A DNA stretch of 64,000 bases, taken from positions 128,001 to 192,000 of the forward strand of contig OY781945.1 in assembly GCA_963677435.1 (NCBI GenBank), written 5' to 3'. Positions 28,786-46,183 of the stretch are shown piece by piece. Position numbers and translations under genes: made by a program. The notes beneath the pieces were generated by a model that saw nothing but the letters and a program-made list of their open reading frames with translations, was not told the DNA's origin and did no database searches. Position 1 is the stretch's first letter. Each line of letters begins with the position of its first letter. This stretch comes from an uncultured Aliarcobacter sp. (GTDB lineage: Bacteria > Campylobacterota > Campylobacteria > Campylobacterales > Arcobacteraceae).

Positions 28786-28814
28786 AAACTGAACAAACAA
28801 GTTTTGTTCAGTTT
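28786..28814. terminator. bidirectional terminator between purT and the filament locus
   Basis: AAACTGAACAAA...TTTGTTCAGTTT. Confidence 0.7.
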
Positions 28815-29883
28815 ATATTTTTATTGTTAAAGAGTATTGCATTCCTTCATTGTCTATTGGTGTAATATCAATTTTTCCATTTATTGCATATGCTAAATTT
28901 TTTGCTTCTAATATTGTTTTATTATCAACATCTGATAAAAACAGACTATGAATATTTTTTATTTCAAATCCATTATTTTTCACAATAATTTGAATATTTG
29001 ATTTAGATACTAATACATTTACTTCAATTTGTTTTTGTATTTTCCCTTTTTTTAACTCTTTTTTTATTAAATCAATACAAGATTGTTCTATAAAACAAGA
29101 TAAAATATTTTCGAAATAAGCTTTATCTAAATATATAGGTTTACTTAAAGTAGTTTCAACATCATAATCTATAAAAATTTTATATCTTACATTTGCATAG
29201 ACAAAATTATCAGTTCTTCTTTTATGTAATTCTAAAATGTAATTAAGATTATTTAAATTTGTAATTTTCTCATTTTTATGATTTAAATTTAATATTTCAT
29301 ACTCAAATTTTTTTAATTCTTCATATTGTAAAGCATATGAGTCAATAATTTGGAAAATGATTGTACTATTAATTAAATCTTCAACACCTAATTTATTAAT
29401 ATATTTATCAAAGATATCAGTGTTAAACATATCAAGGTAATATTTAAGATTAAAAAGCCTATTCTTTAAATTTAAAAGATTATTTATATCTTTAAAATAC
29501 TTATTTTTTAACTCTTTGGATAATAAACTATTTTTTAAATTCAACTCAATCATTTTAATGAAATTCTCATCATCAAAAATTAAATTTGTTACTTCGACTT
29601 TTTGTGATTCACCACATAATAATAGGACTTCTTTTAATTGGTCTTTTACAATCGTTAACGACTCGTCTAAACATAAACTTATTTCAAAAATTGAAGGTTG
29701 TATATCCTCATGGTTTTCATTAAAAACTTGTCGATTTAATCTTGTTTTTCCACCATTTTCACTAGAAAAAATTTCTGCTATATTAAAAAATTTATTGTAT
29801 TTAACAATTAAAATTTTTAACTCATTTGATATTTTTTCTATATCAAATGCAACCCCTGATATATTTTCATATTTATTATCCAA
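28813..29883 (-). CDS. hypothetical protein with degenerate C-terminal HATPase_c (GHKL)-like domain
   Basis: IQIIVKNNGFEI..LF, AINGKIDI..EGMQYSLTI resemble a histidine-kinase ATPase fold; N and G2 boxes lost. Confidence 0.6.
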   Translation of the reverse strand: MDNKYENISGVAFDIEKISNELKILIVKYNKFFNIAEIFSSENGGKTRLNRQVFNENHEDIQPSIFEISLCLDESLTIVKDQLKEVLLLCGESQKVEVTNLIFDDENFIKMIELNLKNSLLSKELKNKYFKDINNLLNLKNRLFNLKYYLDMFNTDIFDKYINKLGVEDLINSTIIFQIIDSYALQYEELKKFEYEILNLNHKNEKITNLNNLNYILELHKRRTDNFVYANVRYKIFIDYDVETTLSKPIYLDKAYFENILSCFIEQSCIDLIKKELKKGKIQKQIEVNVLVSKSNIQIIVKNNGFEIKNIHSLFLSDVDNKTILEAKNLAYAINGKIDITPIDNEGMQYSLTIKI

Positions 29884-29892
29884 TTTTATATC

Positions 29893-30933
29893 CTACATAC
29901 AATTTGAATCGGTAGCAGTTACATTATTATCAATAATCTGAAGCCAATTATTTTCATTAGCAACCAGCATTACATCACCTGATTTTTTCTTATATATTGT
30001 ATCAAGTTGCACCCAATCTGATTTCTTTTGTTTTACTGTAAATTGATCATCTAATTTTAAAACTCTTAATATTTTGGCATTTAATTCATTAGAATTTCTA
30101 ACATTTAAATTTGATTTTTTTACTGTATATAAACAACTTGAATTCTCATTATTAGAACTTTTTGCTACAGGTATTTTTGAGTCTTCTTTAGTAGAAACTT
30201 GGGAAAAAGCTTTTTTTACAGAAGTTTCTTCTTTAATCATTGCTTTTATTTCTTCTTTTTTAGGAGTTTTTTCACTATCATTTTTTTCTTCAACCTTTGG
30301 AATTTTCTTTAAATCACTTACTGAAATTCCATAATTACTTAAATAAATAGTATAACCATACTCTTCATCAAGTTTTTTATATAACTCAACACTTTTTGTT
30401 CTTGTATTAATGCTTACTATTTTATGCTCTAAAATTGAATCTCCAACAATATATCTTCCTTCTATATTAGCGCTTAATTCGTTACTTAGAGTTTTTTTAG
30501 CAGTTACTGCTTCATCTTCAAGTTTTAATACAACATAATCTTTTCCATTAAAAGAGTACATACTTTTAATTTTTAAATCTTTTAATTTTTTTGTTCTTGT
30601 AAAATCTGTTGTAAGTCTTGCCATATCATTTTGGTGAGTAAATACATATTTTTCATAATCTTCTTGGGAAAGTTTTGGTTCTTCTTTTACAATTGTTTGT
30701 ACTTGTGGATTACTTGGATTAATCGTGTTTGTATCTTTTTTATTTTTTATCGCACTTACTTGTTCTTCTAAATAATCTTTTTGTAGTCCTGTAATTGCAT
30801 TAAAAAACTCTTTTGATTGTTTATCTAAAACATCTAACTTATCAGCATTTTGCATCTGAGTCTGAATTGATTCTTCTGCATGTAAATTAAGTGCCATAAA
30901 AAATAGAAATGTAACTAATTTTATTTTTTTCAT
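29893..30933 (-). CDS. exported PilP/GspC-like protein with C-terminal SH3b domain
   Basis: signal peptide, beta-rich YIVGDSI..HKIVSI segment, LNVRNS...DWVQL SH3b pattern. Confidence 0.6.
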   Translation of the reverse strand: MKKIKLVTFLFFMALNLHAEESIQTQMQNADKLDVLDKQSKEFFNAITGLQKDYLEEQVSAIKNKKDTNTINPSNPQVQTIVKEEPKLSQEDYEKYVFTHQNDMARLTTDFTRTKKLKDLKIKSMYSFNGKDYVVLKLEDEAVTAKKTLSNELSANIEGRYIVGDSILEHKIVSINTRTKSVELYKKLDEEYGYTIYLSNYGISVSDLKKIPKVEEKNDSEKTPKKEEIKAMIKEETSVKKAFSQVSTKEDSKIPVAKSSNNENSSCLYTVKKSNLNVRNSNELNAKILRVLKLDDQFTVKQKKSDWVQLDTIYKKKSGDVMLVANENNWLQIIDNNVTATDSNCM

Positions 30934-30951: not shown

Positions 30952-33150
30952 TTATTTAAATATAAATTCATAATTAAATCCACCAATATATGTAGGATAT
31001 TTTATAAAGAATGGCCCTTTACTATCACTAGTCGTCCAATCACCTGATGTCATATTTGTAAGAAGATTATCTCCCCCTTCTGCAACTAAATAATCTTTAT
31101 TTATATCATATAAATTCGTATTAAATACAGGTATCATAAATGTATTACCAGTGGCATATCCAGATCTATAAAAAGATTGCATCCCCCAACAATACATTTG
31201 ATTATAAATATCAATTCCACACATTCCATTATCATCTTCAATAACTTTTATTTTTTTCCATTTAATTTTTGCTATTGAACTTTTAAATATTGTATCTGAA
31301 CGATTTTCACTAGTAAAATAATCTCCCTTTAATTCATTCTTTGAATTTATCCATACTATTCCATCCGAAGTAAAATCTACCCAAATTAATTCACTATCAT
31401 CCGCTTGCACATATTGAGAAGTATAACTTTTGATTTTTTCATTTACAGATTCTACAAGAGGCAAAGAACCCCATGGTTGACTTACTTTATAATATTTACC
31501 ATCTTCACCTTTTGCAACAAAAGCATTTAGTCCACCTTGAATTGATGTAAAAGAGATTGATGCTGATATTTTTAAAGGACTACATAGATTTACAGTTTTA
31601 TTACTTATTTTTTGAGAACAGTTATAATTTGAGTAAGTATCTAATCCCCAAATATAAATATCTCCACTATTAGATAATGCAGCTGTTTTTCTATAACCAA
31701 TTGTTAATAAATATGTAATATCTTTAAATAAAACTTTTGTATTATTTTCTGTTACTACTAATTCAGTTGGATTATTATAATTATTATAATAATTACTTCC
31801 ACCTCCTGAAAAGCCTGCATAATCATATCCCCATCGGTAAATTTTACCATCTTTATAATCACCATTTGCATCTATACTTGTATTGCCAAGCATTAACCAA
31901 ATTTGATTATTAGCAAATATTTTTGTTGCTTTTCTATCTGTAGTTCCATCAAAATAATTACTTCTATAAAACATTTCAGGTGGATTTCTTACATTGTCTG
32001 TATTAAGGTCTGTATACATTGAACTTTTATCACTTGCAGTTACTCCTCCACAATAAAGTTCTCCTTTTATTGATACCCCACAAGTACCATGGTAAACTGT
32101 ACTAAAAAAATCAACAAACTTAGGTCGTAATGGTGAAGAAAAATAGTTTTTATCATCTAATGCACTATTATATGTTTTAACCTTTGCTCTTACAAGTCCT
32201 GTAATTACTGGATATCTATTTGAAGAACCAGTATTTCCACTACCTTTTGTATATTTTTCTATATCTATTCCCGTTACTTTATTTGCATTATTTCCCCAAG
32301 TATAAATATCTCCATTTACAATCATCCCACCTGCTCTTCTTGTAAATTGAATTACAGTTTTCCCAATATCTCTTGTTTTAGAATTTACTTTAATAATACC
32401 ATTACTATTTCCAAGATTTATGTATTCACCAGCTGTATCTTCTGCTTTGTGAATAATTGTTTCACCTGAATATAAAACATTCTTATTAAGCATTAAAGCC
32501 TTAAATTCATCTGTTTTATTCCCATTTAAATCTAACATATTTACATTCTCATCAACAATTAAATCTTTGTTTATTGAGAATTTATATTTTCCTGATTCGT
32601 ACCAATGAAGAATGTTATTTGTATCTAAATAATATTTACCTGAAGCAGTACCAATTGCTGTATTTTTTGTTGTTGTAATACTGTTTTTATTTGTATATAT
32701 AAATTTTTCTTTTGTTGATAAAATAATTTCAACATTATTATTATTTATACCCATAGGTGCTTTTGTATTTACCCTATTTGTATTTGTATAATAATAATCA
32801 TATAAATTTGATTTTAATTTTAAATCTGTTGTCAAAAAATTTTCAAGTTCATGTTTATCATCTTTTATATCAAGGGGCAAAATATTTTCATCAATTTTTA
32901 ATTTCATTTGTTTACCAAAAGGATTAATTTCATTAAATCCCTTTGGTAAATAATTTGCATTTTTTAATTCTAAAATTGTTGTAGGATTTACCCCTTTATC
33001 TAAAATATATTTTTTATAAGCTGTTGCGATTTCTTCTTCTTTTTGTACAAGTTTTTTGATTTTTGTTAAAGTTAATGAATCAATATAATTATCACTTGCA
33101 AAAATATTCAAAGAAAGAAAAAATAAAATTAATATTCTAAATGAAAACAC
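30952..33150 (-). CDS. exported pilin-head/RCC1-like beta-propeller protein (putative adhesin 2)
   Basis: signal peptide; GDIYTWGNN, GELYCGG, IYRWG, GDIYIWG, MYCWG blades. Confidence 0.7.
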   Translation of the reverse strand: MFSFRILILFFLSLNIFASDNYIDSLTLTKIKKLVQKEEEIATAYKKYILDKGVNPTTILELKNANYLPKGFNEINPFGKQMKLKIDENILPLDIKDDKHELENFLTTDLKLKSNLYDYYYTNTNRVNTKAPMGINNNNVEIILSTKEKFIYTNKNSITTTKNTAIGTASGKYYLDTNNILHWYESGKYKFSINKDLIVDENVNMLDLNGNKTDEFKALMLNKNVLYSGETIIHKAEDTAGEYINLGNSNGIIKVNSKTRDIGKTVIQFTRRAGGMIVNGDIYTWGNNANKVTGIDIEKYTKGSGNTGSSNRYPVITGLVRAKVKTYNSALDDKNYFSSPLRPKFVDFFSTVYHGTCGVSIKGELYCGGVTASDKSSMYTDLNTDNVRNPPEMFYRSNYFDGTTDRKATKIFANNQIWLMLGNTSIDANGDYKDGKIYRWGYDYAGFSGGGSNYYNNYNNPTELVVTENNTKVLFKDITYLLTIGYRKTAALSNSGDIYIWGLDTYSNYNCSQKISNKTVNLCSPLKISASISFTSIQGGLNAFVAKGEDGKYYKVSQPWGSLPLVESVNEKIKSYTSQYVQADDSELIWVDFTSDGIVWINSKNELKGDYFTSENRSDTIFKSSIAKIKWKKIKVIEDDNGMCGIDIYNQMYCWGMQSFYRSGYATGNTFMIPVFNTNLYDINKDYLVAEGGDNLLTNMTSGDWTTSDSKGPFFIKYPTYIGGFNYEFIFK

Positions 33151-33641
33151 TATTTAATCTCCTTTGGCATTGATATATAATCCACAAAATAAATAGTCTC
33201 ATTTTGATCGTGTTTTTTGATTTTTCCAATATATGATAAAATTCCCAAAGCAGCTTGTAATCCATTCTCACTTTGAGCTGTTACTTGTGTTACAATTAAA
33301 TATCTATCAACACACATTTTTTTTGAATCTAGATATTTTAGCTGATAGTCAAACACTGACATTCTTGAAAAAATATCTTTCACTTTTGTTTCAAGTTCAT
33401 CTTTATTTATATACTCTTTTTCAACTGTTTCTATTTTCTTTTTTGATAACTCAACTTGTTTTTTTAAATTATCTGTTTGCGCTTTTTTTTCTTGTAATAC
33501 AATAGTTAAACTATCTTTTTCATAAGCGATTTTGAAATAAAGTACAGTTTTATATATTAAAAATCCAACTGAATATACTACTAAAGTAAATATACAAATT
33601 TTAGTAATTTTAGAGAGAGTTTTATTACTTATACTAATCAT
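33150..33641 (-). CDS. bitopic membrane protein, PilN/PilO/GspM-like
   Basis: single TM, coiled coil, small alpha/beta domain; position in the locus. Confidence 0.5.
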   Translation of the reverse strand: MISISNKTLSKITKICIFTLVVYSVGFLIYKTVLYFKIAYEKDSLTIVLQEKKAQTDNLKKQVELSKKKIETVEKEYINKDELETKVKDIFSRMSVFDYQLKYLDSKKMCVDRYLIVTQVTAQSENGLQAALGILSYIGKIKKHDQNETIYFVDYISMPKEIK

Positions 33642-34393
33642 TTTAAAACCTCATTTTTATTGCTAATACATTGGGTTAACTCTAAGTATTCTTTTTCACT
33701 CTTATTTAATAAAATCTCTTGTCTTTTTGCTAATTGGCCTTCAATTCTAATTTCTTGATTTAAATTATCTAAAGATTGCTGTTCAAACAATTTTGAAGTT
33801 AATAATTCTAATCCAAAAAATATTGTCCAAAAAACAAAACCTAATATAAAAATTGAATAAAACATTTTTACACTATGTGATTTAAAAGTATCAAGTTCAT
33901 TAAGTGGTTTTACTAAGTCATTAATTTCCCCTAATGATTTAGCAACTACTTCATTTTTTTCATTTTTTGTATTTTGTCTTAAAATATTTTCAACGGCACT
34001 TTTATATTTTGAATTTATTACATAATATATATTTTCAATTGCTCCACCACTTGAAAGCATTGCAATATGTTTTGTAATTAATATAGATTTTATCATATCA
34101 TCTGTAATAAAGTTTTGGTTTATTTTTGCTGAATATACAGTTTTGTGATTAAATAAAATCACATACTCATTTTCTGCAATATGTATCAAAAACTGATTTC
34201 TTCCCAAATGTTTTTTTGATAAAAGATTTAAAGAATATACTTCTTCATTTGTATCATATTTAGAAAGAAATACACTATATTTTTTAAAAGAGTTATATGT
34301 AAACATATTTTGCTCAGAAGCAAACTCATCATTTAAATAAAATGTTTCATTTAAATCTTTTGATGCAAAATCTGTTATTACTAATCGTACCAT
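33638..34393 (-). CDS. bitopic membrane protein, PilM-N/GspL-like alignment subunit
   Basis: cytoplasmic N-domain, one TM, periplasmic coiled coil; directly after the ATPase. Confidence 0.45.
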   Translation of the reverse strand: MVRLVITDFASKDLNETFYLNDEFASEQNMFTYNSFKKYSVFLSKYDTNEEVYSLNLLSKKHLGRNQFLIHIAENEYVILFNHKTVYSAKINQNFITDDMIKSILITKHIAMLSSGGAIENIYYVINSKYKSAVENILRQNTKNEKNEVVAKSLGEINDLVKPLNELDTFKSHSVKMFYSIFILGFVFWTIFFGLELLTSKLFEQQSLDNLNQEIRIEGQLAKRQEILLNKSEKEYLELTQCISNKNEVLK

Positions 34394-36072
34394 ACTTCCT
34401 CCCCTCTAATGATTGCAATTGCATCATCTTTTGTAATAAGTCCTTCATGATATTGAGCCATACAAGCTTTTTCTACAGTCATATATTCAGCAGGGTTTTC
34501 AAAATCTCCACCATGACCTATTTTAAACCTTACAACCTCAGCAATAGGTACCCTGTCTTTAAATCCTGTATGGTTACACTCATCACAACCAACTTTTTTA
34601 AATCCACCTTCTCCATCTTCTTCTTTACAAAATTTGCATAACTTTCTAACTAATCTTTGAGATACAATTCCTCTTAAGTTATCTATAATATCCCCTTCAT
34701 TAATTCCAAGAGAACTTGTCATCCTAGATACCGTTGCAGGTGCAGAGTTTGTATGCATTGTAGAGAATACTAACTGACCTAAGTTTGATGCATTTACAAG
34801 TTGTGAAGCCGTTTGAGGCTCTCTTGTTTCCCCAATCAGAATAATATTTGAATCTTGTCTTAAGATATCAACAACAGCTTCAGGGTAACCATATTTAAAT
34901 TCATCACTTGCACTTGCAAACTCAGATAAATCAATTTGGAAAAATGATTCATCCACATACTCAACAGGATCTTCAATAGTAATAACATATTGTTGTTGTT
35001 TTGCCAATTGTTGTAAAAGTGCATACATCAAGTGAGTTTTCCCTGATCCAACTTGACCTGTAATTAATATCATTCCATTTGCATATTTTGTTAAATTTGA
35101 TAAGATATCAACTGTTTCTTGTGGATAATTTAATCCTCTCAAGTTGTGTGAAACAACTCCTCGTCCACCAATCATCCTCATAACTAATGAAAAATTTAAT
35201 TTTGAGTTTATAAGCCCAAGTCTAAATTTAATATTTTTTTTACCATATTCATAATTTATAACCCCATTGATTGATTCATAATCTGAATCTTCTTGGTCAG
35301 CCATGGTTACCAATCTTCTTTTGATAGTTTTAGCAATTGTTATTGGCATTGTTCCCATATCAACTTTGATACCATCTATTCTAAACCATAAAGATGCATA
35401 TCTACTTGTTTTTTGAATATGTATATCAGATGCTCCAAGTAAAATAGCTTGTCCCATCATTTTGTCAAAATATTTATTTATCTCTTCATCATTTTCTGTG
35501 TCACTATTTGAATTAAAGATAATCTCTCTATCTTCCCCAAATACAGAAGATAAAACACCCTCTCCTAAAACAACTATTTTTGTAAAATAAAATTTACTCA
35601 AAACTTCAAAATCAAGATTTACAACATCTCTTATACCTAAAACTTTGTTTTTTATTTTTTTGTCTTCTAATGTAATTATATACATCGTTGTACATAGTTC
35701 TAGTTTCTTTTCATCTAATTGAAATGATGTATCTTGATAATGTTTTGACAATTCATTATAACTAGCATAATATTCATAACCTAAAGTTTTTACGAATTGT
35801 TCATATTTCTCTTCATTTGCCATTAAATCACCGTATCCACCTTTTAGCTGGAACTTCTCTTTAATAACATCTTCAATTAATATTGCAAGTTGAGTATCTA
35901 TATCTTCACTTTTTCCTAAAAATTCTAAAAATTTATTTTTTTGCTTCTCAAAAATAGCTTTATAATCTGTAGTTTTTGAGATTAGATGTTTTTTATTCTT
36001 TTGATTATTCTGATTTTTCAAAAAAGAAAATTTAGGGACATTTTTAAATGTAGCAAGAATTTTTTTAATCAT
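34381..36072 (-). CDS. PilB/GspE-family extension ATPase
   Basis: ASDIHI, FRIDG, Walker A GQVGSGKT, TIEDPVEY, LRQD..IILIGE, STMHTNSA, SQRLVRKLC, CxxC/CxxC Zn site. Confidence 0.93.
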   Translation of the reverse strand: MIKKILATFKNVPKFSFLKNQNNQKNKKHLISKTTDYKAIFEKQKNKFLEFLGKSEDIDTQLAILIEDVIKEKFQLKGGYGDLMANEEKYEQFVKTLGYEYYASYNELSKHYQDTSFQLDEKKLELCTTMYIITLEDKKIKNKVLGIRDVVNLDFEVLSKFYFTKIVVLGEGVLSSVFGEDREIIFNSNSDTENDEEINKYFDKMMGQAILLGASDIHIQKTSRYASLWFRIDGIKVDMGTMPITIAKTIKRRLVTMADQEDSDYESINGVINYEYGKKNIKFRLGLINSKLNFSLVMRMIGGRGVVSHNLRGLNYPQETVDILSNLTKYANGMILITGQVGSGKTHLMYALLQQLAKQQQYVITIEDPVEYVDESFFQIDLSEFASASDEFKYGYPEAVVDILRQDSNIILIGETREPQTASQLVNASNLGQLVFSTMHTNSAPATVSRMTSSLGINEGDIIDNLRGIVSQRLVRKLCKFCKEEDGEGGFKKVGCDECNHTGFKDRVPIAEVVRFKIGHGGDFENPAEYMTVEKACMAQYHEGLITKDDAIAIIRGEEVWYD

Positions 36073-36083
36073 ATTTCATCTTC

Positions 36084-37100
36084 TTACTTATATAGAGTTT
36101 TAAAGGTAAATGTACTAATAACTAAATTAATAATATCAGAACCAATAATAACCGTAACTAACATAGCAACCATCCAAAACATGAATTTCCATTGTAAAAC
36201 CATATAATTAATATTTTTCTCATACATAGTGTCACAAGTTTGATATAAAGCTTTTGTAACTTCTGAGAAACTAGTTTTACTTAGTTCTGATAGTTTTATA
36301 TCTGCTGTTATGATTGCTGGAAAATTATATTTTTCAAATACAATAAATAACTTCTTATTTCTGTTTATAATGTCAGCTAATTCATAGAAAAATGGTCTTA
36401 ATCCCTCTTTAAAATAGTCCTTTGATAAAATTAATGAAGTTTTATGAAATGAAATACCAGCACTTAACATACCATTTAAAATTCTAAACATAAATCTTCC
36501 ATCTGAAAATGCTTGTGTTTTAAAAACTTTATATAACCAAGCTGGTTTATACTTTTCACAATAAACATATCCAAAAAAGATAAATGCAGTCACAAATATT
36601 GATACTCCTAAACCTGTATATGCAATTTCATAAGTAAAATATTTTGGTATTCCCAAAAATTGCTCAACATCAGGATTCATTTTTCTTAACTGAACTAAAT
36701 CTTTTTGTAACATATCAAGATACAAAATCAAAGCATAAAATGTTCCTATAACTATTGATAAAGGAACAAAAATTGGATTTATCATTTTTAATAATAGATT
36801 TGAATTTGCTTTTTTAAAAGACAATACTAGCTTTAGCCCATCAATTGTACTTGTACTATTTACAACTAAACTAAATTGGAAACTATTTAGAAATTTATGT
36901 TTATGCAAAATTGCTTCAAGTTTATGTTTACCTATTTCCATATCTTTTATTGCAGCCATTAATCTTTTTTTAAAATTAGTCTCTCTTGAAATTTGTTCAC
37001 TGTACAATAATAATGCTCTTCTTGTATTTGAACCATTTTCTAATTTTGTAACTAGATAATCTAATAAAAACTGCTCATATGGATCAGCAAACATACTCAT
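36084..37100 (-). CDS. PilC/GspF-like inner-membrane platform protein
   Basis: two helical cytoplasmic lobes (LENG..; MLSAGIS) with TM helices, between secretin and ATPase. Confidence 0.72.
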   Translation of the reverse strand: MSMFADPYEQFLLDYLVTKLENGSNTRRALLLYSEQISRETNFKKRLMAAIKDMEIGKHKLEAILHKHKFLNSFQFSLVVNSTSTIDGLKLVLSFKKANSNLLLKMINPIFVPLSIVIGTFYALILYLDMLQKDLVQLRKMNPDVEQFLGIPKYFTYEIAYTGLGVSIFVTAFIFFGYVYCEKYKPAWLYKVFKTQAFSDGRFMFRILNGMLSAGISFHKTSLILSKDYFKEGLRPFFYELADIINRNKKLFIVFEKYNFPAIITADIKLSELSKTSFSEVTKALYQTCDTMYEKNINYMVLQWKFMFWMVAMLVTVIIGSDIINLVISTFTFKTLYK

Positions 37101-37102
37101 TA

Positions 37103-38761
37103 TTAAAAGCCTTTTATGTTTTTAAGAGTTACAATATAAACTATTTCTCTTCTAACATAAGATTTTGAATCTGTACCACCTATTGCAAATCCTTCAACAG
37201 GTAAAACACCTTGATAATTTTTAGTATCATCATGCACAATAATTGATCCAACTATTGATGTTTCGCCAAGTCTTATTTCTCTTGAAATATTATAACTTTG
37301 GTCATTATATTGAGGTAATTTTATTGTAGTTCCATCGATACTTACTTGATCAAACTCTATAAGTTTTTTAATTGTTGGTGAAATATTTAAAAATACTTTA
37401 TCTCTAGATATTTTAGCCATTGCTGTAATTGAAGTTCCCTCTTTTAGAGTATTAACCGTAACATCAGATGTTCTTGTATTTGTATCAGAATCAACTGTTG
37501 TTTCGATTTTTTCCACATAATCTGTATTTTGTGTTATTGATTGAACAGTTGGGATATTATTTTTTAGAACTAAAACATTTTTACTATAGTTTAATATTTT
37601 TCCAATTGCATTATTTGCAGTTGCTGTTACTTGAAGAAGTCTTGAAGCATTATCACTTGTAAAACTAAATGCACCATTTTCTCCTAAATTTCTAATAACT
37701 CCTTTTCCTGAATTCGTTTGCCTATCATCAGATATTGTTCCTATTCCATACTCTCTATTTTTATTTAAAAGAAGTTCTACTCTTTCAAACTCAATTACAG
37801 CTTCTTTTGCAAATGATGCTTCATAAGCTTTTGCAATAGTTCTAACTGCACTTTCTACAGAAGTTGTTGATTTTAAGAAAATTAATCCACTGGCTTTATC
37901 AATGTGATATGTTGATATCTTATCTGTTGATATAATATTCTTTAACATTTTATCTAACTCATCATATAGGGCTATTTGAGAGTTGTTTTCAACTTTACTC
38001 TCTCCTGTTGATTCTTGGTTAGAAGTTTGACTTGATGATTTCATATCTAATAATGGAATATTTAATTCAATTACAATATCTTTATATCTTGCGATATTTA
38101 TTACTTCTTTATCATAATCAATATCTACAAAAACATCTTTTGCATGTGATAGTGAGTTTAGAGCATCTTTTAAGTTTTTTGAACTAATACTAATTATACT
38201 ATTTTGAAAATCATCTCTATTATCTATATAACTTCCAATATTTACTTCATATCCAGAAGCAGCTGTTATTAATTTTATTAACTCTTCCACCGAAATTTGA
38301 CCATCAAGAATAAAAGGAATATGTTCTATTGATTGTTTTTTTGTTTCACTTGTACTTAAAAGTTGAACTAAATATATTGAGCCACTTTTTTTAATAAATA
38401 GTTCTTTATCTAGTACTGCATTTAAATATTGATTTAATTCAACAATATTATGTATTTTTATTCTGCTTTTAGGAATTAAAATATCACTACTTTTTAAATA
38501 ATAAAAATTACCATCTAATATTTCCATCTCTTTTAAAATGTCACCTAATGATTTATCATCCAAAATACTGATGTACTCTTTTTTTACTTCTTTTTCATTT
38601 ACTAAAGAGCCAGAATACGATTCCTGTAAACTTTTATACTCTTTTTTGTCAAGAGAGTTTTTTGTATTTGCAATCATTTCTTCATGATAACTTTTTGAGC
38701 TACAACCAGAAAGAAGTAGAGTCAAAATTGTAAAAGATAAAAGATTTCTATATTTTTTCAA
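37103..38761 (-). CDS. lipoprotein secretin (BfpB/TcpC/MshL-like)
   Basis: lipobox LSGC, IDKASGLI, LKEGTSI, IKLPQ..IRLGETSIVG, RREIVYIVT. Confidence 0.82.
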   Translation of the reverse strand: MKKYRNLLSFTILTLLLSGCSSKSYHEEMIANTKNSLDKKEYKSLQESYSGSLVNEKEVKKEYISILDDKSLGDILKEMEILDGNFYYLKSSDILIPKSRIKIHNIVELNQYLNAVLDKELFIKKSGSIYLVQLLSTSETKKQSIEHIPFILDGQISVEELIKLITAASGYEVNIGSYIDNRDDFQNSIISISSKNLKDALNSLSHAKDVFVDIDYDKEVINIARYKDIVIELNIPLLDMKSSSQTSNQESTGESKVENNSQIALYDELDKMLKNIISTDKISTYHIDKASGLIFLKSTTSVESAVRTIAKAYEASFAKEAVIEFERVELLLNKNREYGIGTISDDRQTNSGKGVIRNLGENGAFSFTSDNASRLLQVTATANNAIGKILNYSKNVLVLKNNIPTVQSITQNTDYVEKIETTVDSDTNTRTSDVTVNTLKEGTSITAMAKISRDKVFLNISPTIKKLIEFDQVSIDGTTIKLPQYNDQSYNISREIRLGETSIVGSIIVHDDTKNYQGVLPVEGFAIGGTDSKSYVRREIVYIVTLKNIKGF

Positions 38762-38773
38762 AACATTATTTCC

Positions 38774-41700
38774 TTATTTAAAATAAAATGGATAATCAAA
38801 TCCGCCAATATATGTGGGGTATTCTAAAAACAAACTTCCATTATTGTTATACTCATCAAAAGCCATTTGTACATTTTTTTCACTCTCTTGAGAAATAAAT
38901 AATTTATTTATAGTACTTATTTTAGCAACATCATACAAAGAAGTACTTAAAATTGGAATACTTCTTCCAACATTTCCCCAACAATACATTTGAGATGAGC
39001 TTCCAAGGCCAGTCATTGAACAAATATATGGAACAGTTCTAGTATTTGAACCATTTGAACTTGAACCAGCAGATGAACTACTTTTATTTCCTGTAAGAGT
39101 AAATAATATATTATCCACCCCCCATGAAACAGAATCTATATTTGCATCTTTTATATATGCTCCAAATCCTAATTTTATATTTCCAAATTCATCTAAGTTT
39201 TCTGTTCTTGTAAAATGAAATTTTCTATCTTCAGTATTTCCAGTATTATCAATTTTATTTAATTTGCTAGAAGATACATTATCATCCATAGAATATGTTA
39301 AATATTTTGTTCCATTTATAAAAGTGTAAAATCTATCTATTGTATACCAAATATTATATCTCCAGTCATCAATTCTATAAAAATCATACTCAATAGTTAC
39401 CTCTTTATTTGCATACTCTGATCCAAAGCTAAATACTTTATACACTTCTTCTGAACCATCACTTTCCCCTTGATAATTCGATAAACCCCAAGATTTTCTA
39501 TTAAATCTTCCTAAAAATTTTGTTGCTGTTCCACTATCTGTATAAATTGGATAGTTATAAAATGGATCAGAAGTTGAAGTATAAGGAACTGGACCTTTTG
39601 GTACGATCCAATAATCATGATTTGAATTTTCAAAATTTTCAAAATAAGTTCCACTTGAAAAAGTTGCATTATCTATTTGTCTACTAATCCTTATATTATC
39701 GATTCCAAAAGATTCATTTGTATAATCTTCTCCTAAAACTGCACCAAAACCTAAAGTTGATTTTCCATTTGAATCTAATGTTGTACTAAATGTATAACTA
39801 TGTTTTTGTCCCGTTTGATTCCCTGTATTAGATATTATTCCTAAATCAACTCCAGCTTTTGTATCATAAACATTATTACCTGAATACATATCGGATTGAA
39901 CTAAATTATTATTTATATAAACATAAAATTTCTCAGGAAGTCCATTTGGTCCTCTCCATACTGAATCATCCCCATCCCATGAACCTATCTCATACATATC
40001 AAATGTGATTTTTACATTTTGATTTGCCCATGAACTACCTAAACTAAATGTTTTTTTTACAACTTCACTTCCATCATCTGTTGCAATTCTATTTCTTCCC
40101 AACATTCCTAAAAATTTACTAGCAGTTAATCCTCCATCATGAATATAACTTACATTCCATCCAGAAGTTGAGCTATTTTCAAAATTTTCAACATAATCTT
40201 CTCCATAATCAGCCACTGTTTGATTAATTGTTGATCCAAAAATCGAGATATTTGAGAAATTTGCATATAAATTATTATTTATAGTATTTGTTAAACTATT
40301 AAGTTCATTCATAGCTGATGTAAAAACTGCATTTTCACTACTTGAACAGCTATTAAAATCTTTATCTTTGCAATTTAAAAATTCACTAGAAGCTTGAAGT
40401 TGCATATTTTTATCAATATAAATTAATATTTCTTTAGTCCCATAATCATAGATTGAAGCACTTAATGCACTTCCATCAATTCCTAAATCTTTTATACTTA
40501 AATCTGAATAAGTTCTAAAATATCTATTGTCAACACTCTTAAGAACAAACTCTTTGCTATTTACAAAAATTCCATTTTCATTAAATTTTTTTGAATTTGA
40601 TAAAATTATTGGTTTGTTATAAATTGTACCATTTGGTCTTTCTCCCCAAATCCAAAAATAATTTTGTTCATCTAAAGCACCAAAACATTTTATATCTCTT
40701 AATGCGTAAATCTTTTTAAAAACTTGTCCATTTGTATTTATTACCGTTGGTTCACTTACGGATAAAGTATAATTATCATTTCCAATACCTAATGCCCCTT
40801 TTTCATTTGAGCCAACAGTATAAATTTTACCTGAATCTGATAATGCAGCCCAAGTTCCATCAACCATAACTATATCTTTTAAATAAATTGCATTTGAATT
40901 GTAAATTCCATTCTCTTTTCCAGCTGCTACAACTTTATTTTTTCTTAATATAGAAGTTTCTGTTTGTCCATTTGTATCCAAATAAAAACTATCTGAATTA
41001 ACTGAACCATTACAATATAAATCTCCACCATATTTTTTTGTTGTACCTGCTTCATAATAATCAAAAATAGGAGATATACCACAAACATTTTTATTATTCA
41101 TCGCAACTTTTTCAAATTTAACTCTATAAGGATTGTTGTACCATTTTTTACTAATTAAATCTTGACTCTCAATATTTTCAATCTGTACTTTTAACATTAC
41201 AGGAGTATTTACATAATCTGGCTTTAAATTAGTATCCATCTGACCATAATTTTCAATTCCAGCTTTTTTATATTTATTATCACCCCAACAAAAGATATCC
41301 CCATTTGCAAGCATACAGCCACCATTTATTCTTAAAACTAAATCTTTTGAATCGGGGATGTAAGATAAAATTCTATCAGCAATACTCAACTCACTATCAT
41401 TTTGAGTTAGTGCATCACCCATTCCTGATGGTACCCAATTTTGTGTATCCACATCACCTTGATAATAATATTCATACCAAGAATTATTTTTTTTAACAAA
41501 TGCTTTATCTCCTATATTTGCTTTTACGAATTGCAAGTCATCCCAATTTTCAAGATAAATAGGAGCATCTTGGTATACATCAAATGAATATGTACTTCTA
41601 CAATATTTATATGTTAGTTTTCCATTATTCAACTGATAAAAATAATTATCAGTTGTACACTGTTGATTTGATTGTTTTATATCTTTGTGGTTTGTTTCGT

Positions 41701-42172
41701 TTAAAATTGAAACAATCTGCTTTTGTATATCATTGTATAAAACCTGAGAGCCTATAACTAATTTTTCTTTTGTTATATTTGAAGGAGGTATTGTATTTAC
41801 TCTAAATACTTTATTTATGTAAAAATTATATAAATAATTATACTCAGAATTATAATCCTTCTGATCTTCGATAACTCCCTGAATATAGGCACTATTTTTA
41901 TTATCAAAAGTAACTTTTATATTTTTAGATGTAATGGGATTAAGTTTATTAAAATTAACCCCTAGATATTCTGCTGTTTCTAATTTTTCCCAATCTAAAC
42001 TTTTATCACTTAATTTTGGAATAGTTGCCGTTTGTGCAATATATTTATTTATTGCCAAAGATATATATTCCTCTTTTTGAATAACATCTTTTATATTATT
42101 CATTAAAGATATATTTTCACTTGAAGAAAAAGAAAAATTTATAAAAATTAGTAAAAGAATTAGAGTTTTGAT
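38774..42172 (-). CDS. large exported pilin-head/RCC1-like propeller protein with two internal beta-sandwich repeats (putative adhesin 1)
   Basis: GDIFCWGDN, GKIYTVGSN..GALG, MYCWG; ORF track starts at 42103 but the frame is open to 42172 and encodes a signal peptide. Confidence 0.72.
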   Translation of the reverse strand: MKTLILLLIFINFSFSSSENISLMNNIKDVIQKEEYISLAINKYIAQTATIPKLSDKSLDWEKLETAEYLGVNFNKLNPITSKNIKVTFDNKNSAYIQGVIEDQKDYNSEYNYLYNFYINKVFRVNTIPPSNITKEKLVIGSQVLYNDIQKQIVSILNETNHKDIKQSNQQCTTDNYFYQLNNGKLTYKYCRSTYSFDVYQDAPIYLENWDDLQFVKANIGDKAFVKKNNSWYEYYYQGDVDTQNWVPSGMGDALTQNDSELSIADRILSYIPDSKDLVLRINGGCMLANGDIFCWGDNKYKKAGIENYGQMDTNLKPDYVNTPVMLKVQIENIESQDLISKKWYNNPYRVKFEKVAMNNKNVCGISPIFDYYEAGTTKKYGGDLYCNGSVNSDSFYLDTNGQTETSILRKNKVVAAGKENGIYNSNAIYLKDIVMVDGTWAALSDSGKIYTVGSNEKGALGIGNDNYTLSVSEPTVINTNGQVFKKIYALRDIKCFGALDEQNYFWIWGERPNGTIYNKPIILSNSKKFNENGIFVNSKEFVLKSVDNRYFRTYSDLSIKDLGIDGSALSASIYDYGTKEILIYIDKNMQLQASSEFLNCKDKDFNSCSSSENAVFTSAMNELNSLTNTINNNLYANFSNISIFGSTINQTVADYGEDYVENFENSSTSGWNVSYIHDGGLTASKFLGMLGRNRIATDDGSEVVKKTFSLGSSWANQNVKITFDMYEIGSWDGDDSVWRGPNGLPEKFYVYINNNLVQSDMYSGNNVYDTKAGVDLGIISNTGNQTGQKHSYTFSTTLDSNGKSTLGFGAVLGEDYTNESFGIDNIRISRQIDNATFSSGTYFENFENSNHDYWIVPKGPVPYTSTSDPFYNYPIYTDSGTATKFLGRFNRKSWGLSNYQGESDGSEEVYKVFSFGSEYANKEVTIEYDFYRIDDWRYNIWYTIDRFYTFINGTKYLTYSMDDNVSSSKLNKIDNTGNTEDRKFHFTRTENLDEFGNIKLGFGAYIKDANIDSVSWGVDNILFTLTGNKSSSSAGSSSNGSNTRTVPYICSMTGLGSSSQMYCWGNVGRSIPILSTSLYDVAKISTINKLFISQESEKNVQMAFDEYNNNGSLFLEYPTYIGGFDYPFYFK

Positions 42173-42928
42173 TTAATCCACCTTTAATATTTGTATACTA
42201 TTTGCTACATCAACAAGTTTTATATATTTAGAAACATCTTTAATATATATGTATGACCCTACTGATAAATCAACTATTTTAGGTTCATTAACTAAAACAC
42301 CTGCACTCATGGAAGTTGTGATATTCCCTTTATTAAATTCAATTTTACTATATTCAATCCATTGGGAACTAGCGTTATACCAACGAAAAGTTTTTTGATT
42401 ATTATTACAATATGTATTTATTAAATTTGAACTGCACACTTTTTGTATAGTGTAATTATTTGATAATAGATTAAATATAGTTTTTGCCTCATCACTTTGT
42501 AATTTAATTTCAACATATGATTTATCTAAATCAACTTTCGAATTACTATCTTTTACAAAATACACACTTGTAAAATCTCTATATAAATCTCTGTTATAAA
42601 GTTGTGCAACATACTTATCTGTATTTCTATATTCATCTTTTGTTATTAGATATTTTATTTTTAACTCTTTTGTATTTAGAAAATCTATATCTATTCCCAT
42701 TTTATTTATTTTTGAAAAATTACTTCCTAAATAATCATCAGTTATTAAATTATCTATTGTTGGTAATTTGAATTCAGTTAAAATATATTTTTCAAAGTTT
42801 TTTGCAATATTCTCTTCTATCTCAATTAAATTTTGTACATATAATGTATTTTGATTTTGAGCTAGTAAATTATCATCTGCATTTAAATAAAAGCAAAAAA
42901 TGAAAATTGAGAAAATACTTTTTATCAT
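42173..42928 (-). CDS. exported pilin-head-like protein
   Basis: Sec signal (YLNA), EE.IA..FEKYI...KLPT..L...YLG shared with three paralogues. Confidence 0.6.
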   Translation of the reverse strand: MIKSIFSIFIFCFYLNADDNLLAQNQNTLYVQNLIEIEENIAKNFEKYILTEFKLPTIDNLITDDYLGSNFSKINKMGIDIDFLNTKELKIKYLITKDEYRNTDKYVAQLYNRDLYRDFTSVYFVKDSNSKVDLDKSYVEIKLQSDEAKTIFNLLSNNYTIQKVCSSNLINTYCNNNQKTFRWYNASSQWIEYSKIEFNKGNITTSMSAGVLVNEPKIVDLSVGSYIYIKDVSKYIKLVDVANSIQILKVD

Positions 42929-43647
42929 TTTAAAGCCTCTATTCCTGTTGTAGTTTTAACATATTTCACACCTGCTGTATCATAAATCAAAGCACCTTTG
43001 GGAATAGAATTAAACTCATTTTCAGTTAGATGCTTAGAAGTATCACTTGTAATAACAATTGGTCCTGTTTTAAATTTATCAATATGATAACAAATTAAAT
43101 AATCAGTTATTTCACCTGAAGTATAGGTAGGTTTTATATAAATATGGCTATCTTTAATACAAGCTTTATCAGAATTGCTTGAGATACAAGTCCCAATTTC
43201 TTTATTTGTATTATTATTTAATGCAATTAAATCAAACAATTGTTTTGCAAAAATATCTTCTAAAATAAAATAAACAGCCCCACTTCTTACATAAGTTCTT
43301 TTTCTATAATTGTCACCCTCATATAAATTTTTTATACCTGAATCACTTGCCAATTCATTCCCTAAAGAATAACTCATTTTAGTTATACCAGATGTTAATG
43401 TTGTAACATTTACTTTATTAGTATCAATAGTAATAAATGAAGTAATTCCTCCACCTAAAAGTGTGTTTATATTCGCCATTGTAGGAAGTTTATAATTATT
43501 CAAAAGATACTCTTCATATGTTCTAGCAACTGATTCTTCATATTGAACTATATTTTTGACATTTTCCAAAGTTTCTTGTCTTTGTTCAAATGTTTCACTT
43601 TGAAGAAAAGAGAAACTAATAATTAAAAATAGAATAAATTTAATCAT
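42925..43647 (-). CDS. exported pilin-head-like protein
   Basis: Sec-type signal, EESVARTYEEYL...KLPT; ATGA coupling on both sides. Confidence 0.6.
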   Translation of the reverse strand: MIKFILFLIISFSFLQSETFEQRQETLENVKNIVQYEESVARTYEEYLLNNYKLPTMANINTLLGGGITSFITIDTNKVNVTTLTSGITKMSYSLGNELASDSGIKNLYEGDNYRKRTYVRSGAVYFILEDIFAKQLFDLIALNNNTNKEIGTCISSNSDKACIKDSHIYIKPTYTSGEITDYLICYHIDKFKTGPIVITSDTSKHLTENEFNSIPKGALIYDTAGVKYVKTTTGIEALK

Positions 43648-44402
43648 AATTCATCTTTTAGTTGATAATATAGCTTTGTTTCAGCAGCTGTTTCATTTAA
43701 ATAAAGTTTATCTTTAATCTTTGATTTAAAGTAATCTATTTTTCTATTTTTTAATACCGTTTCATTCAAAGTACTATCCAATGATATTTCAGTTGTTGTT
43801 CTAAAATCTTGATACATTTTATCATAAGGAATAAAATTATTATCATCATTTAAAAGCTTTGATAAAGTTTCTGATACTGTTTTATCTGAATATAAGATTT
43901 CAACTTCTAAGAAATGAATTGCTCTATTTACACTATTTTCAATCTGTTTGTCAGATAAAATTTCATTTTTATTATTTTCACCAATATTAATAGTATATTT
44001 TTTTGTTTCTTCATCAAAAGAAAGAGTATTTACATCTGTAATGTTTTTTAATTTTGCTTTTAAGGCTAGAAGTTTTAACTTTTCATCTTGACTTATTTCA
44101 ATATTTCCAGCACTATTCACTAGCTCTTTATTTGTTAAAGTGCTATTTTTATTTCTATCAAGTAATAAAACTTTTTCCCAATTTTCACCTTTTGGTAAAT
44201 TGGCAATTATTTCATCTCTTGTAATATCTTGGGGATTTTTGTTGTATTGCTTGGCTAAAAGTGTTTTGATTTCTGAGATTATTTCATAGTTTTCTTGGAT
44301 TTGTTTTGCTTCTTGAACATCACTATATGATTTGTACATAGCAGATGCTGAAAATATAGCTGTAACAATAAGAGCAGACGATAGCCATATATTTCCAAAC
44401 AT
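43644..44402 (-). CDS. pilin-like protein with N-terminal hydrophobic helix
   Basis: hydrophobic N-helix followed by amphipathic EIISEIKTLL helix. Confidence 0.5.
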   Translation of the reverse strand: MFGNIWLSSALIVTAIFSASAMYKSYSDVQEAKQIQENYEIISEIKTLLAKQYNKNPQDITRDEIIANLPKGENWEKVLLLDRNKNSTLTNKELVNSAGNIEISQDEKLKLLALKAKLKNITDVNTLSFDEETKKYTINIGENNKNEILSDKQIENSVNRAIHFLEVEILYSDKTVSETLSKLLNDDNNFIPYDKMYQDFRTTTEISLDSTLNETVLKNRKIDYFKSKIKDKLYLNETAAETKLYYQLKDEL

Positions 44403-44435
44403 TAATAAAAACCCTTCAAAAAAAGAAACTTAAAA

Positions 44436-44517
44436 TAAAAACTAAATACTATTGAGTTTTTAGTACTTAGTTTTTAGTTTATAAAAAAATAAACACTTAG
44501 GCTAAAGCCTAAATGTT
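44436..44517 (-). terminator. two hairpins downstream of the putative major pilin
   Basis: AACACTTAGGC-taaa-GCCTAAATGTT (44492-44517) followed by a U-tract on the minus strand; second imperfect inverted repeat 44436-44476. Confidence 0.65.
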
Positions 44518-44521
44518 AAAA

Positions 44522-45172
44522 TTATAATACTGTACCTAAATCTTTAAAATATATTGTAAATATACCATCACCTAAAGATGCAGCATCTGATTTAACTGTA
44601 CCTGCTGCTCCAGTTGTGTCTAAAACAGTTGCAGGTCGATTTGCTTTAGGAACTTCTCCATCAGCTAAAGCAACTGGACTACCATCAGTTGTTGTTCTAT
44701 CTGTAGATGCTTGAGATGCTAAATCTGAAGAAATCTGTCCTTCTAAAAATGCCGCATTAGTCGCTAATCCATTAAGTAACTCAACTCTAAGTCCTGGTAC
44801 TGAACCTGCACCATTTAAAATTAAAGAAATATTCATTCCTGGGTTAGTTTTTCCACCAAAAGAAATTGCAGAATATGTATTTACTTCACCTGTTGCAAAA
44901 TTAGTTGAGGCAGCTGTTTTATTATCTTTAAGCTGTTCATTAATTTGTTTTGAGAAATATCCAAGATTTGCTAAATCTTTTAATGTTACACCTGCTTTAA
45001 GTTCACCTGTTTTAATTGCAACAATTAAATCACCCCTAATATTATTGATTTCTGTCATTACACTTGTTTTTTGTGCAACACCTTCAATTTTATCACCTGT
45101 TCCACCAAATGTTTGGAACATATAAATCATTGCTCCAACTACTACGATTACCATTGCTATCAACTGTGGCAT
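44522..45172 (-). CDS. putative major pilin-like subunit lacking a class III leader
   Basis: AAGGA RBS, MPQLIAMVIVVVGAMIYMF N-helix, TEINNIR..LKDLANLGYF, Gly/Ala/Thr-rich head. Confidence 0.6.
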   Translation of the reverse strand: MPQLIAMVIVVVGAMIYMFQTFGGTGDKIEGVAQKTSVMTEINNIRGDLIVAIKTGELKAGVTLKDLANLGYFSKQINEQLKDNKTAASTNFATGEVNTYSAISFGGKTNPGMNISLILNGAGSVPGLRVELLNGLATNAAFLEGQISSDLASQASTDRTTTDGSPVALADGEVPKANRPATVLDTTGAAGTVKSDAASLGDGIFTIYFKDLGTVL

Positions 45173-45220
45173 ACTTCTATCCTTTTTGTTAAGTTAAATT
45201 TCTTAGACCTTTAGGTCGGT

Positions 45221-45226
45221 ATTATA
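45221..45226 (-). promoter_or_regulatory. -10 box for the putative major pilin
   Basis: TATAAT on the minus strand about 50 nt upstream of ATG 45172. Confidence 0.5.
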
Positions 45227-45252
45227 CTACAACTTCTTTTAGTTGCACCAAT

Positions 45253-45840
45253 TTACTTGAATACTATACAAACAAAAAGCCCATCATTGTTTGTACCATC
45301 TTCTTTAAAATCTTCTGTTCCAACTGTAGAATCATAAGATTTCCCATTTGTCTGAAAAGTTCCAAAAAGCAACTTTTCACAAAATTCTCTTCCCGAAAAA
45401 CTTTCTGAAAAGATTGCCTTACTCATCAAACTTCCATTTGCACGCATATCAACTAAAAGTTTATATGCACTTCCAGCCGATGTTGCAAATTTTGCATCTG
45501 TACTTAGAACTGGAATCATCTGCCAAACTACTGAACTTGATGGGAATGTTAATTTTGAAGCTTTTGCAGAACCTTTAACATTATCAGTAGATGATGCAGT
45601 TGGTTTTGTCATTTTTATATTTCCTGACAAAATACCAGCATCATACAATACTTCAAAATTAATATCTGATAAACTTCCACCAGATTGGATATATGTATTT
45701 ACATATCCATCAATAACTAAAAACATTGACTTCATTCTATCAAGTTCAGCAGTGATAGAACTATTATCAGATTCATATCTTGTAAGCAAAATAACTGTTG
45801 CCGCAACAATAGCAAGTAGTGAGGATACAAGATAGGGCAT
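45253..45840 (-). CDS. pilin-like protein lacking a class III leader
   Basis: AAGGA RBS before ATG 45840 (MPYLVSSLLAIVAATVILL), LYDAGIL, C-terminal Cys pair. Confidence 0.58.
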   Translation of the reverse strand: MPYLVSSLLAIVAATVILLTRYESDNSSITAELDRMKSMFLVIDGYVNTYIQSGGSLSDINFEVLYDAGILSGNIKMTKPTASSTDNVKGSAKASKLTFPSSSVVWQMIPVLSTDAKFATSAGSAYKLLVDMRANGSLMSKAIFSESFSGREFCEKLLFGTFQTNGKSYDSTVGTEDFKEDGTNNDGLFVCIVFK

Positions 45841-46106: not shown

Positions 46107-46183
46107 TGGTACGCCTGACAGGAGTCGAACCTGTAACCGCCGGGGCCGAAACCCGATGCTCTATCCAGTTGAGCCACAGACGC
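46107..46183 (-). tRNA. tRNA-Arg (anticodon TCG)
   Basis: cloverleaf GCGTCTG..GCTC-D-GAGC, anticodon loop TTTCGGC, GGTTCGACTCC T-arm, encoded CCA; 77 nt. Confidence 0.96.

Follow-up and report, generated by a model that had tools for sequence, protein, structure and literature searches.

Leaderless pilin-like proteins encoded beside a putative type IVb-related assembly machine in Arcobacteraceae

Gene cluster and translation starts

We analyzed a 64,000-nucleotide stretch of DNA (the window) from an uncultured Aliarcobacter sp., contig OY781945.1; the window covers positions 128,001-192,000, and the genome is complete, with a size of 3.12 Mb. The window is AT-rich, with a GC content of 0.21-0.30. 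A run of 14 genes extends along its minus strand from position 45840 to position 28813, and the features described below all lie on this strand. The first three genes of the run encode the proteins p195, p216 and p252, which start directly with a hydrophobic helix and are the subject of this study.

The first gene (45253..45840) encodes p195, a leaderless pilin-like protein of 195 residues that starts MPYLVSS. By sequence comparison it is a paralogue of p216 (hhalign 88%, E 3e-6), the leaderless pilin-like protein of 216 residues encoded by the second gene (44522..45172), which starts MPQLIAMVIVVVGAMIYMFQTFGGTGD. An AAGGA ribosome-binding site (45180..45184) is located 7 nt ahead of the p216 ATG, and a terminator-like hairpin consisting of an 11-bp stem and a T run (44492..44517) lies directly 3' of the gene. 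The hairpin is a consensus match, with two such sites in the region against 0.9 expected. The third gene (43644..44402) encodes p252, a bitopic protein of 252 residues with an N-terminal hydrophobic helix and again no leader.

Translation of the minus strand gives the N-termini MPYLVSSLLAIVAATVILL (ATG 45840), MPQLIAMVIVVVGAMIYMF (ATG 45172) and MFGNIWLSSALIVTAIF (ATG 44402) for p195, p216 and p252, respectively. Each opens with approximately 18 hydrophobic residues and lacks a leader, Gly(-1) and Glu5. An earlier reading of this DNA made without database searches (the sequence-only reading) had claimed that the hydrophobic helix of these proteins begins at the initiator Met, and translation bears this out for all three. 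It had also argued that p216 has no hidden upstream start, citing an in-frame stop and a ribosome-binding site. The TAA (45196-45194) and the AAGGA (45184-45180, 7 nt before the ATG) are both present, and the homologous loci rule such a start out. In 12 of 12 loci, including that in the window, an in-frame stop lies 3-10 codons upstream, a Shine-Dalgarno-like motif is found, and no ATG, GTG or TTG occurs between the stop and the ATG-CCA. For p195, the mechanically called open reading frame (ORF) begins at a TTG (45873) 11 codons upstream of the ATG at 45840, but AAGGA stands before the ATG and not before the TTG. Alternative in-frame upstream starts are absent from 16 of 19 p195 and 15 of 18 p252 sequences, with upstream TTG or ATG codons in the other three of each set, and Shine-Dalgarno motifs precede the conserved ATG.

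A class III signal was defined as a leader of at least 3 residues with Gly or Ala at -1, Glu at +5 and a hydrophobic stretch. This motif was found in 0 of 396 sequences (0/120 for each of p216, p195 and p252, and 0/36 p216 representatives), while the same script recognized 3/3 canonical prepilins of distant clusters. Searching 1.84 billion representatives with a p216 profile matched 39 proteins, and for 39/39 of these the matches that cover profile position 1 all begin at residue 1 of the protein. Pfam and NCBIfam returned no N_methyl or class III signature for p216, p195 or p252; a genome-wide N_methyl search found seven places, all outside the cluster. A caveat applies to the p252 family, in which Gly3 is kept in 116 of 120 matches.

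Conservation and predicted fold of the N-terminal helices

The N-termini of p216 and p195 are devoid of charge. The first charged residue occurs at position 27 in 20/20 p216 sequences and at a median position of 21 in p195, and the mean hydropathy of residues 2-19 in the two proteins is 2.2-2.4. None of the 20 p216 or 19 p195 sequences has Asp or Glu within residues 2-8, and Glu5 is accordingly missing. Lys and Arg are likewise absent from residues 2-6 of all of these sequences, as compared to their presence in 16-18 of 18 sequences of the cluster's Sec-type proteins. The sequence-only reading had suggested checking whether Met-Pro starts are conserved in homologues. They are conserved in p216, where residue 2 is Pro in 20/20 sequences. 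The p195 family is mixed: of 19 sequences, 9 have Pro, 8 Ala and 1 Gly at this position, and in the remaining one the ORF caller placed the start two codons early.

The first 22 residues of p216 show 90% pairwise identity, compared to 47% for the rest of the protein. The corresponding values are 54% and 44% for p195, and 52% and 41% for p252. The reverse is observed in the Sec-type proteins of the cluster, where the N-terminus and the rest are, respectively, 29% and 38% identical in p240, 30% and 46% in p251, 32% and 49% in p732, and 26% and 66% in the secretin lipoprotein. Neither p216 nor p195 resembles a protein with a class I Sec signal, as they lack a charged n-region and their N-terminus is better conserved than the remainder. 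Across 19 p216 sequences, 24 of the first 36 codons specify an invariant amino acid, and 20 of these 24 use at least two synonymous codons; selection on the p216 N-terminus therefore acts on the protein. The stretch QTFGGTGD of p216 is invariant and may form its non-helical segment. A very conserved hydrophobic N-terminus combined with a variable head is the hallmark of a filament subunit, unlike a cleaved signal peptide.

The predicted model of p216 has the lollipop shape of a pilin, a long α1 helix packed on a β-sheet head, and that of p195 shows it more weakly. The predicted N-terminal helices span residues 2-20 in p216 and 3-52 in p195. The AlphaFold2 model of p195 has a mean confidence (pLDDT) of 78.1, and its top VIA rows are PilA1 (6.0), CofA (5.9), TcpA (5.5) and PilS (5.1). 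Both models align with full-length filament pilins from residue 1-3 on. Comparison to pilins with Foldseek gave E 0.029 for p216, which is not significant, and listed no pilin for p195. In the Atlas, p216 matched its own Campylobacterota clusters and two leads at 0.89, one a cluster with N_methyl in 22% of its members and the other a cluster with PilM in 23%. The proposal that all three proteins are pilin-like thus fares unevenly: a pilin fold is well supported for p216 and moderately supported for p195, and remains a proposal for p252, which shows no similarity to p216 or p195 by hhalign and no Pfam, NCBIfam, PDB or Atlas match. The proposed amphipathic second helix is supported by models for two of the three proteins. 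The C-terminal Cys pair of p195 to which attention had been drawn (C154 and C191) is invariant in 24/24 sequences. Searches retrieved 308 relatives of p195 and 361 of p252, the latter all unnamed. Based on its sequence, we propose that p252 may be a membrane-anchored accessory protein or minor subunit.

Contigs from RNA libraries of wastewater and activated sludge (4 runs, 3 studies) cover parts of p195, p216 and p252; such contigs do not reveal starts, strand or level, they may derive from DNA, and we make no claim of expression. One such contig (window 44403-45037) carries the conserved 5' end of p216, then 549 unlike letters in place of 633, and then the downstream region. It appears to represent another allele of the variable p216 head.

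Assembly machine, peptidase and distribution

Downstream in the cluster are genes for an assembly machine. The secretin (37103..38761) is a 552-residue lipoprotein with the lipobox LLSGC that matches the NCBIfam families MshL (E 1.2e-11) and type IVB PilN (E 5.8e-5), both far under their cut-offs. It is followed by a polytopic protein of 338 residues (36084..37100), a probable, very divergent GspF/PilC platform that scores 15.3 bits (E 0.035) against Pfam T2SSF, for which the cut-off is 25.2, and that aligns with the genome's canonical GspF at an hhalign value of 7.8%. Its profile finds distant relatives with E values of 4.5e-19 and 2e-13, and two of three distant platform relatives exceed the T2SSF cut-off, scoring 25.5 and 27.2 bits. 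The assembly ATPase of the GspE/PilB type (34381..36072; 563 residues) matches Pfam T2SSE with an E value of 8.5e-66 and the NCBIfam families TfpB, GspE and PilB at approximately 1e-57. At family cut-off, Pfam and NCBIfam gave no match for the platform or for five small proteins of the cluster, and no retraction ATPase was found within the cluster. A compact cluster that encodes an assembly ATPase, a platform and a lipoprotein secretin is what is expected of a type IVb system. Two further putative assembly components are m251 (33638..34393), a conserved protein of 251 residues with a C-terminal membrane helix, and m163 (33150..33641), a bitopic coiled-coil protein of 163 residues; neither matched a known family. 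Elsewhere in the genome, a second, canonical GspE-type ATPase is split into overlapping ORFs of 317 and 130 residues (G000:C1:1101948-1103268; L003 1216-2536), which may reflect a frameshift or a sequencing error.

Four further cluster proteins have Sec-type signals and share one N-terminal domain. p240 (42925..43647) consists of a Sec-type signal peptide and this conserved helical domain, and p251 (42173..42928) belongs to the same family (hhalign 99.9%). In p1109 (38774..42172) and p732 (30952..33150; Sec signal) the p240-type N-terminal domain is joined to an RCC1-like β-propeller (Pfam RCC1 and hhalign for p1109). We considered these four proteins as leaderless pilins and dropped them, as their N-termini behave as ordinary Sec signals; p240, for example, has Lys or Arg within residues 2-6 in 16/18 sequences, and its first 22 residues are 29% identical, compared to 38% elsewhere. 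The listed ATG of p1109 is at 42103. Reading instead from an ATC (42172-42170) that immediately follows the stop codon TAA of the gene before it (TAA-ATC at 42170-42175) yields an intact Sec signal peptide, IKTLILLLIFINFSFSSS, ahead of that ATG. Three further genomes (L017, L019 and L025) share both the TAA-ATC arrangement and the intact signal, while most p1109 orthologues have ATG. To judge from the sequence, p1109 probably starts at this ATC, which would restore its signal peptide, and the ATC looks like a conserved non-canonical start codon. The cluster ends with two conserved genes (28813..30933) that encode a 346-residue protein with an SH3_3 domain and a 356-residue protein without a family match.

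The C-termini of several cluster proteins are also alike. p195 ends in DG.FVC.V(F/Y)K (45253-45285) and p216 has DG.FT.YFKD near its end, while p732 (30952-30996) and p1109 (38774-38818) end in YPTYIGGF(D/N)Y.F.FK, which is almost invariant in 18/18 orthologues of each. Such an aromatic-Lys strand at the C-terminus, common to three families, could serve in docking or sorting.

Pfam detected no A24 prepilin peptidase among the 14 proteins of the cluster. The only A24 peptidase of the genome, which has an N-terminal CxxC...CxxC region, lies at a distance of approximately 358 kb, flanked by uppS-like and permease genes, and in single-contig genomes at least hundreds of kb separate the peptidase from the cluster. 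Canonical GspE and GspF genes are present in the genome as well, together with N_methyl prepilins outside the cluster, and these separate systems explain the presence of the peptidase. The peptidase is a core gene, and its distribution does not co-vary with that of the cluster (119 of 121 genomes for the peptidase, 22 of 121 for p216).

Among 19 fetched Arcobacteraceae loci, 16 contain matches to all 14 genes. Identity across loci is 71-87% for the platform, approximately 80% for the ATPase and 42-58% for p216. The 22 genomes with p216 are drawn from 121 sampled genomes of the family and represent 9 of 22 genera; one of them (G019) has three p216-like copies, two of which are adjacent. Public records contain relatives from the cultured species Arcobacter cloacae, A. 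ellisii, A. venerupis, A. peruensis, Malaciobacter pacificus and Poseidonibacter parvus. The cluster begins just past a tRNA-Arg gene (46107-46183), and a tRNA-Arg(tcg) is also found upstream in 2 of the 19 fetched loci (L017 542-618 and L025 503-579), the other loci being too short upstream. The tRNA neighbor and the patchy distribution hint that the cluster is a genomic island.

Of 401 genomes sampled across the phylum, 10 have relatives that the platform profile detects. In one relative (G065:C1:755286-757618; L056 and L060) the platform gene is in two pieces approximately 1.3 kb apart, covering profile positions 60-338 and 1-71, which suggests an insertion. Each of the three distant loci (L061, L062 and L063) has matches to hidden Markov models built from the secretin, the platform and the ATPase, the secretin orthologue of L063 scoring 26.9 bits against Pfam Secretin, for which the cut-off is 27.5. 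Neighboring pilin genes at the distant loci are canonical, with the junctions KKG/ITLIE, KKG/FTILE and RKA/ISMVE, and the first two of these prepilins score 19.8 and 18.3 bits for N_methyl, just under the cut-off. Since the prepilins encoded beside these distant machines are canonical, the Arcobacteraceae clade appears to have lost the leader and Glu5, presumably as a derived change. At L062 (G246:C10:5100-25090) the machine relative lies beside an SLT/TraH_2 transglycosylase, and further genes there are presumably conjugative. This locus also encodes proteins of the p240/p732 family and a 169-residue pilin-like protein that begins MFFSKDMIMYAF. AGGAG precedes its first ATG, and its N-terminus is short and polar, without Gly(-1). 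The hhalign value between profile A2 and this protein is 20.8%, and its sequence suggests that it is possibly an intermediate form.

Proposed pilus and comparison with known systems

We propose, with a probability of roughly 0.6, that p216, as major subunit, and its paralogue p195, as second subunit, make up a leaderless pilus related to type IVb and mannose-sensitive hemagglutinin (MSH) pili, and that this pilus is assembled without a prepilin-peptidase step. Within this proposal p216 is most likely the major subunit, a role that the terminator-like hairpin and the variable head would fit, since both suit a highly expressed and exposed protein, and p195 is probably a minor or second subunit. 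Both proteins are translated from the ATG straight into the hydrophobic α1N helix and are thus born mature. The signal recognition particle and Sec would insert them so that the N-terminus faces the cytoplasm and the head lies in the periplasm, an orientation consistent with the Cys pair of p195, which is invariant, and with a C-terminal flank of net negative charge. With Pro, Ala or Gly as residue 2, Met1 would probably be removed by methionine aminopeptidase, whose specificity is established. A Pro1 exposed in this way would, as a secondary amine, resemble the N-methylated first residue of classical pilins. The ATPase and the GspF-like platform would then extract the subunits and polymerize them through the lipoprotein secretin, with p240, p251, p732 and p1109 as candidate tip-bound or secreted partners. 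PilY1, and TcpF and CofJ of type IVb pili, have comparable roles. We regard it as an even bet that the subunits need no prepilin peptidase at all, having lost the leader and Glu5 from class III ancestors, with the N-terminal Pro replacing the N-methylated residue.

Several points weigh against this proposal. Everything beyond the fold and the translation start is inferred, including the filament, its N-terminus and its processing. The N-termini of p216 and p195 carry no positive charges, and the usual rule does not dictate their orientation in the membrane; with Glu5 missing, the N-terminal charge would have to be buried in another way. Pfam, NCBIfam and PDB profile searches did not find a link from p216 or p195 to a known pilin, and hhalign of the two proteins with the L061 and L063 canonical prepilins gives 0.4-4%. 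PDB profile searches with A1, A3, A4 and A5 reached E 0.29 at best. An A24 peptidase is encoded elsewhere in 21/21 cluster-bearing genomes, and across the family 119 of 121 genomes have one. Since every cluster-bearing genome has one, gene content neither proves nor disproves peptidase independence. The sequence-only reading had held that prepilin peptidase is bypassed; the absence of a leader is confirmed, but the bypass itself is no more than a reasonable inference, as the cluster has no peptidase gene while a housekeeping one lies elsewhere.

The peptidase also opens the way to an account in which p216 and p195 are processed after all, by the distal A24 enzyme or another protease at a non-canonical site, such as that after Gly3 of p252. 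The CxxC...CxxC peptidase of every cluster-bearing genome and the Gly3 of 116/120 p252 relatives speak for such processing. We consider it quite improbable, since p216 and p195 have no Gly or Ala(-1) with a hydrophobic stretch near their start, the peptidase does not co-vary with p216, and separate canonical N_methyl prepilins account for it. It is scarcely credible that the starts are misassigned and a leader is encoded upstream. While a TTG precedes the p195 ATG by 11 codons and upstream TTG or ATG codons occur in 3/19 p195 and 3/18 p252 sequences, such starts are absent from 16/19 and 15/18, a stop closes off the upstream region 3-10 codons away in 12/12 p216 loci, and Shine-Dalgarno motifs mark the conserved ATG.

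The remaining alternatives accept the starts and question the fate of the proteins. If the hydrophobic segments were ordinary signal peptides, signal peptidase I would release soluble periplasmic or secreted proteins, and T-F-G at positions 21-23 of p216 could suit the -3/-1 rule for cleavage after Gly23. This is very unlikely given that Lys or Arg in the n-region is found in 0/20 p216 and 0/19 p195 sequences, that the p216 N-terminus is its best conserved part (0.90 versus 0.47), opposite to the true signal peptides of the cluster, and that alignment of the models with full-length filament pilins begins at residue 1-3. Alternatively, p216 and p195 might stay in the envelope, either as a short periplasmic pseudopilus like that of type II secretion or as static anchored parts, while the machine exports p240, p251, p732 and p1109. 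The four Sec-type signals with one common domain are consistent with export, as are an ATPase that scores equally well on GspE and on PilB and a cluster with no retraction ATPase; we nevertheless consider this arrangement unlikely.

If a leaderless pilus is indeed what the cluster encodes, leader cleavage and the salt bridge from Glu5 to the N-terminus would be dispensable in type IV filaments, breaking a rule thought to be universal for them. It would also explain why N_methyl, PilFind-type rules and MacSyFinder models with mandatory pilA and pilD would miss such systems. Leaderless pilins would provide a handle on why pilins are N-methylated, and the question is directly testable because relatives occur in cultured species of Arcobacter, Malaciobacter and Poseidonibacter. 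The literature searched, mostly without subscription journals, yielded no description of leaderless type IV pilins or of this Arcobacter cluster.

Type IVb clusters typically carry their own prepilin peptidase gene, of the TcpJ, BfpP or PilU type, and the p216/p195 cluster has none. Published accounts define type IV pilins by a class III signal peptide whose processing precedes assembly (PMC4471445, PMC10191384), and the leader ends in Gly or Ala (PMC4471445, PMC10191384, PMC10710030, PMC6668835). PMC10710030 describes the Glu5 of bacterial type IV pili as absolutely conserved, and in the toxin-coregulated pilus this residue neutralizes the N-terminal amine. PMC6668835 describes MacSyFinder models in which pilA and pilD are mandatory. 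Vibrio cholerae TcpA, enterotoxigenic Escherichia coli CofA, Salmonella Typhi PilS and Clostridioides difficile PilA1 have class III leaders ending in Gly, contain Glu5 and need the peptidase (PMC4471445, PMC10191384). In comparison, p216 and p195 lack a leader, Glu5, an in-cluster peptidase gene and detectable sequence similarity to these pilins. Archaeal type IV pilins are often without Glu5 (PMC4471445), like p216 and p195, but unlike them they keep class III leaders and a dedicated peptidase. Further counterparts are the Campylobacterota loci L061 and L063, whose secretin, platform and ATPase are homologous to those of the p216/p195 cluster (hmmsearch E 1e-18 to 1e-54) and whose layout is similarly compact. 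Their pilins have leaders followed by G/FTILE, G/ITLIE or A/ISMVE and no detectable similarity to p216 or p195.

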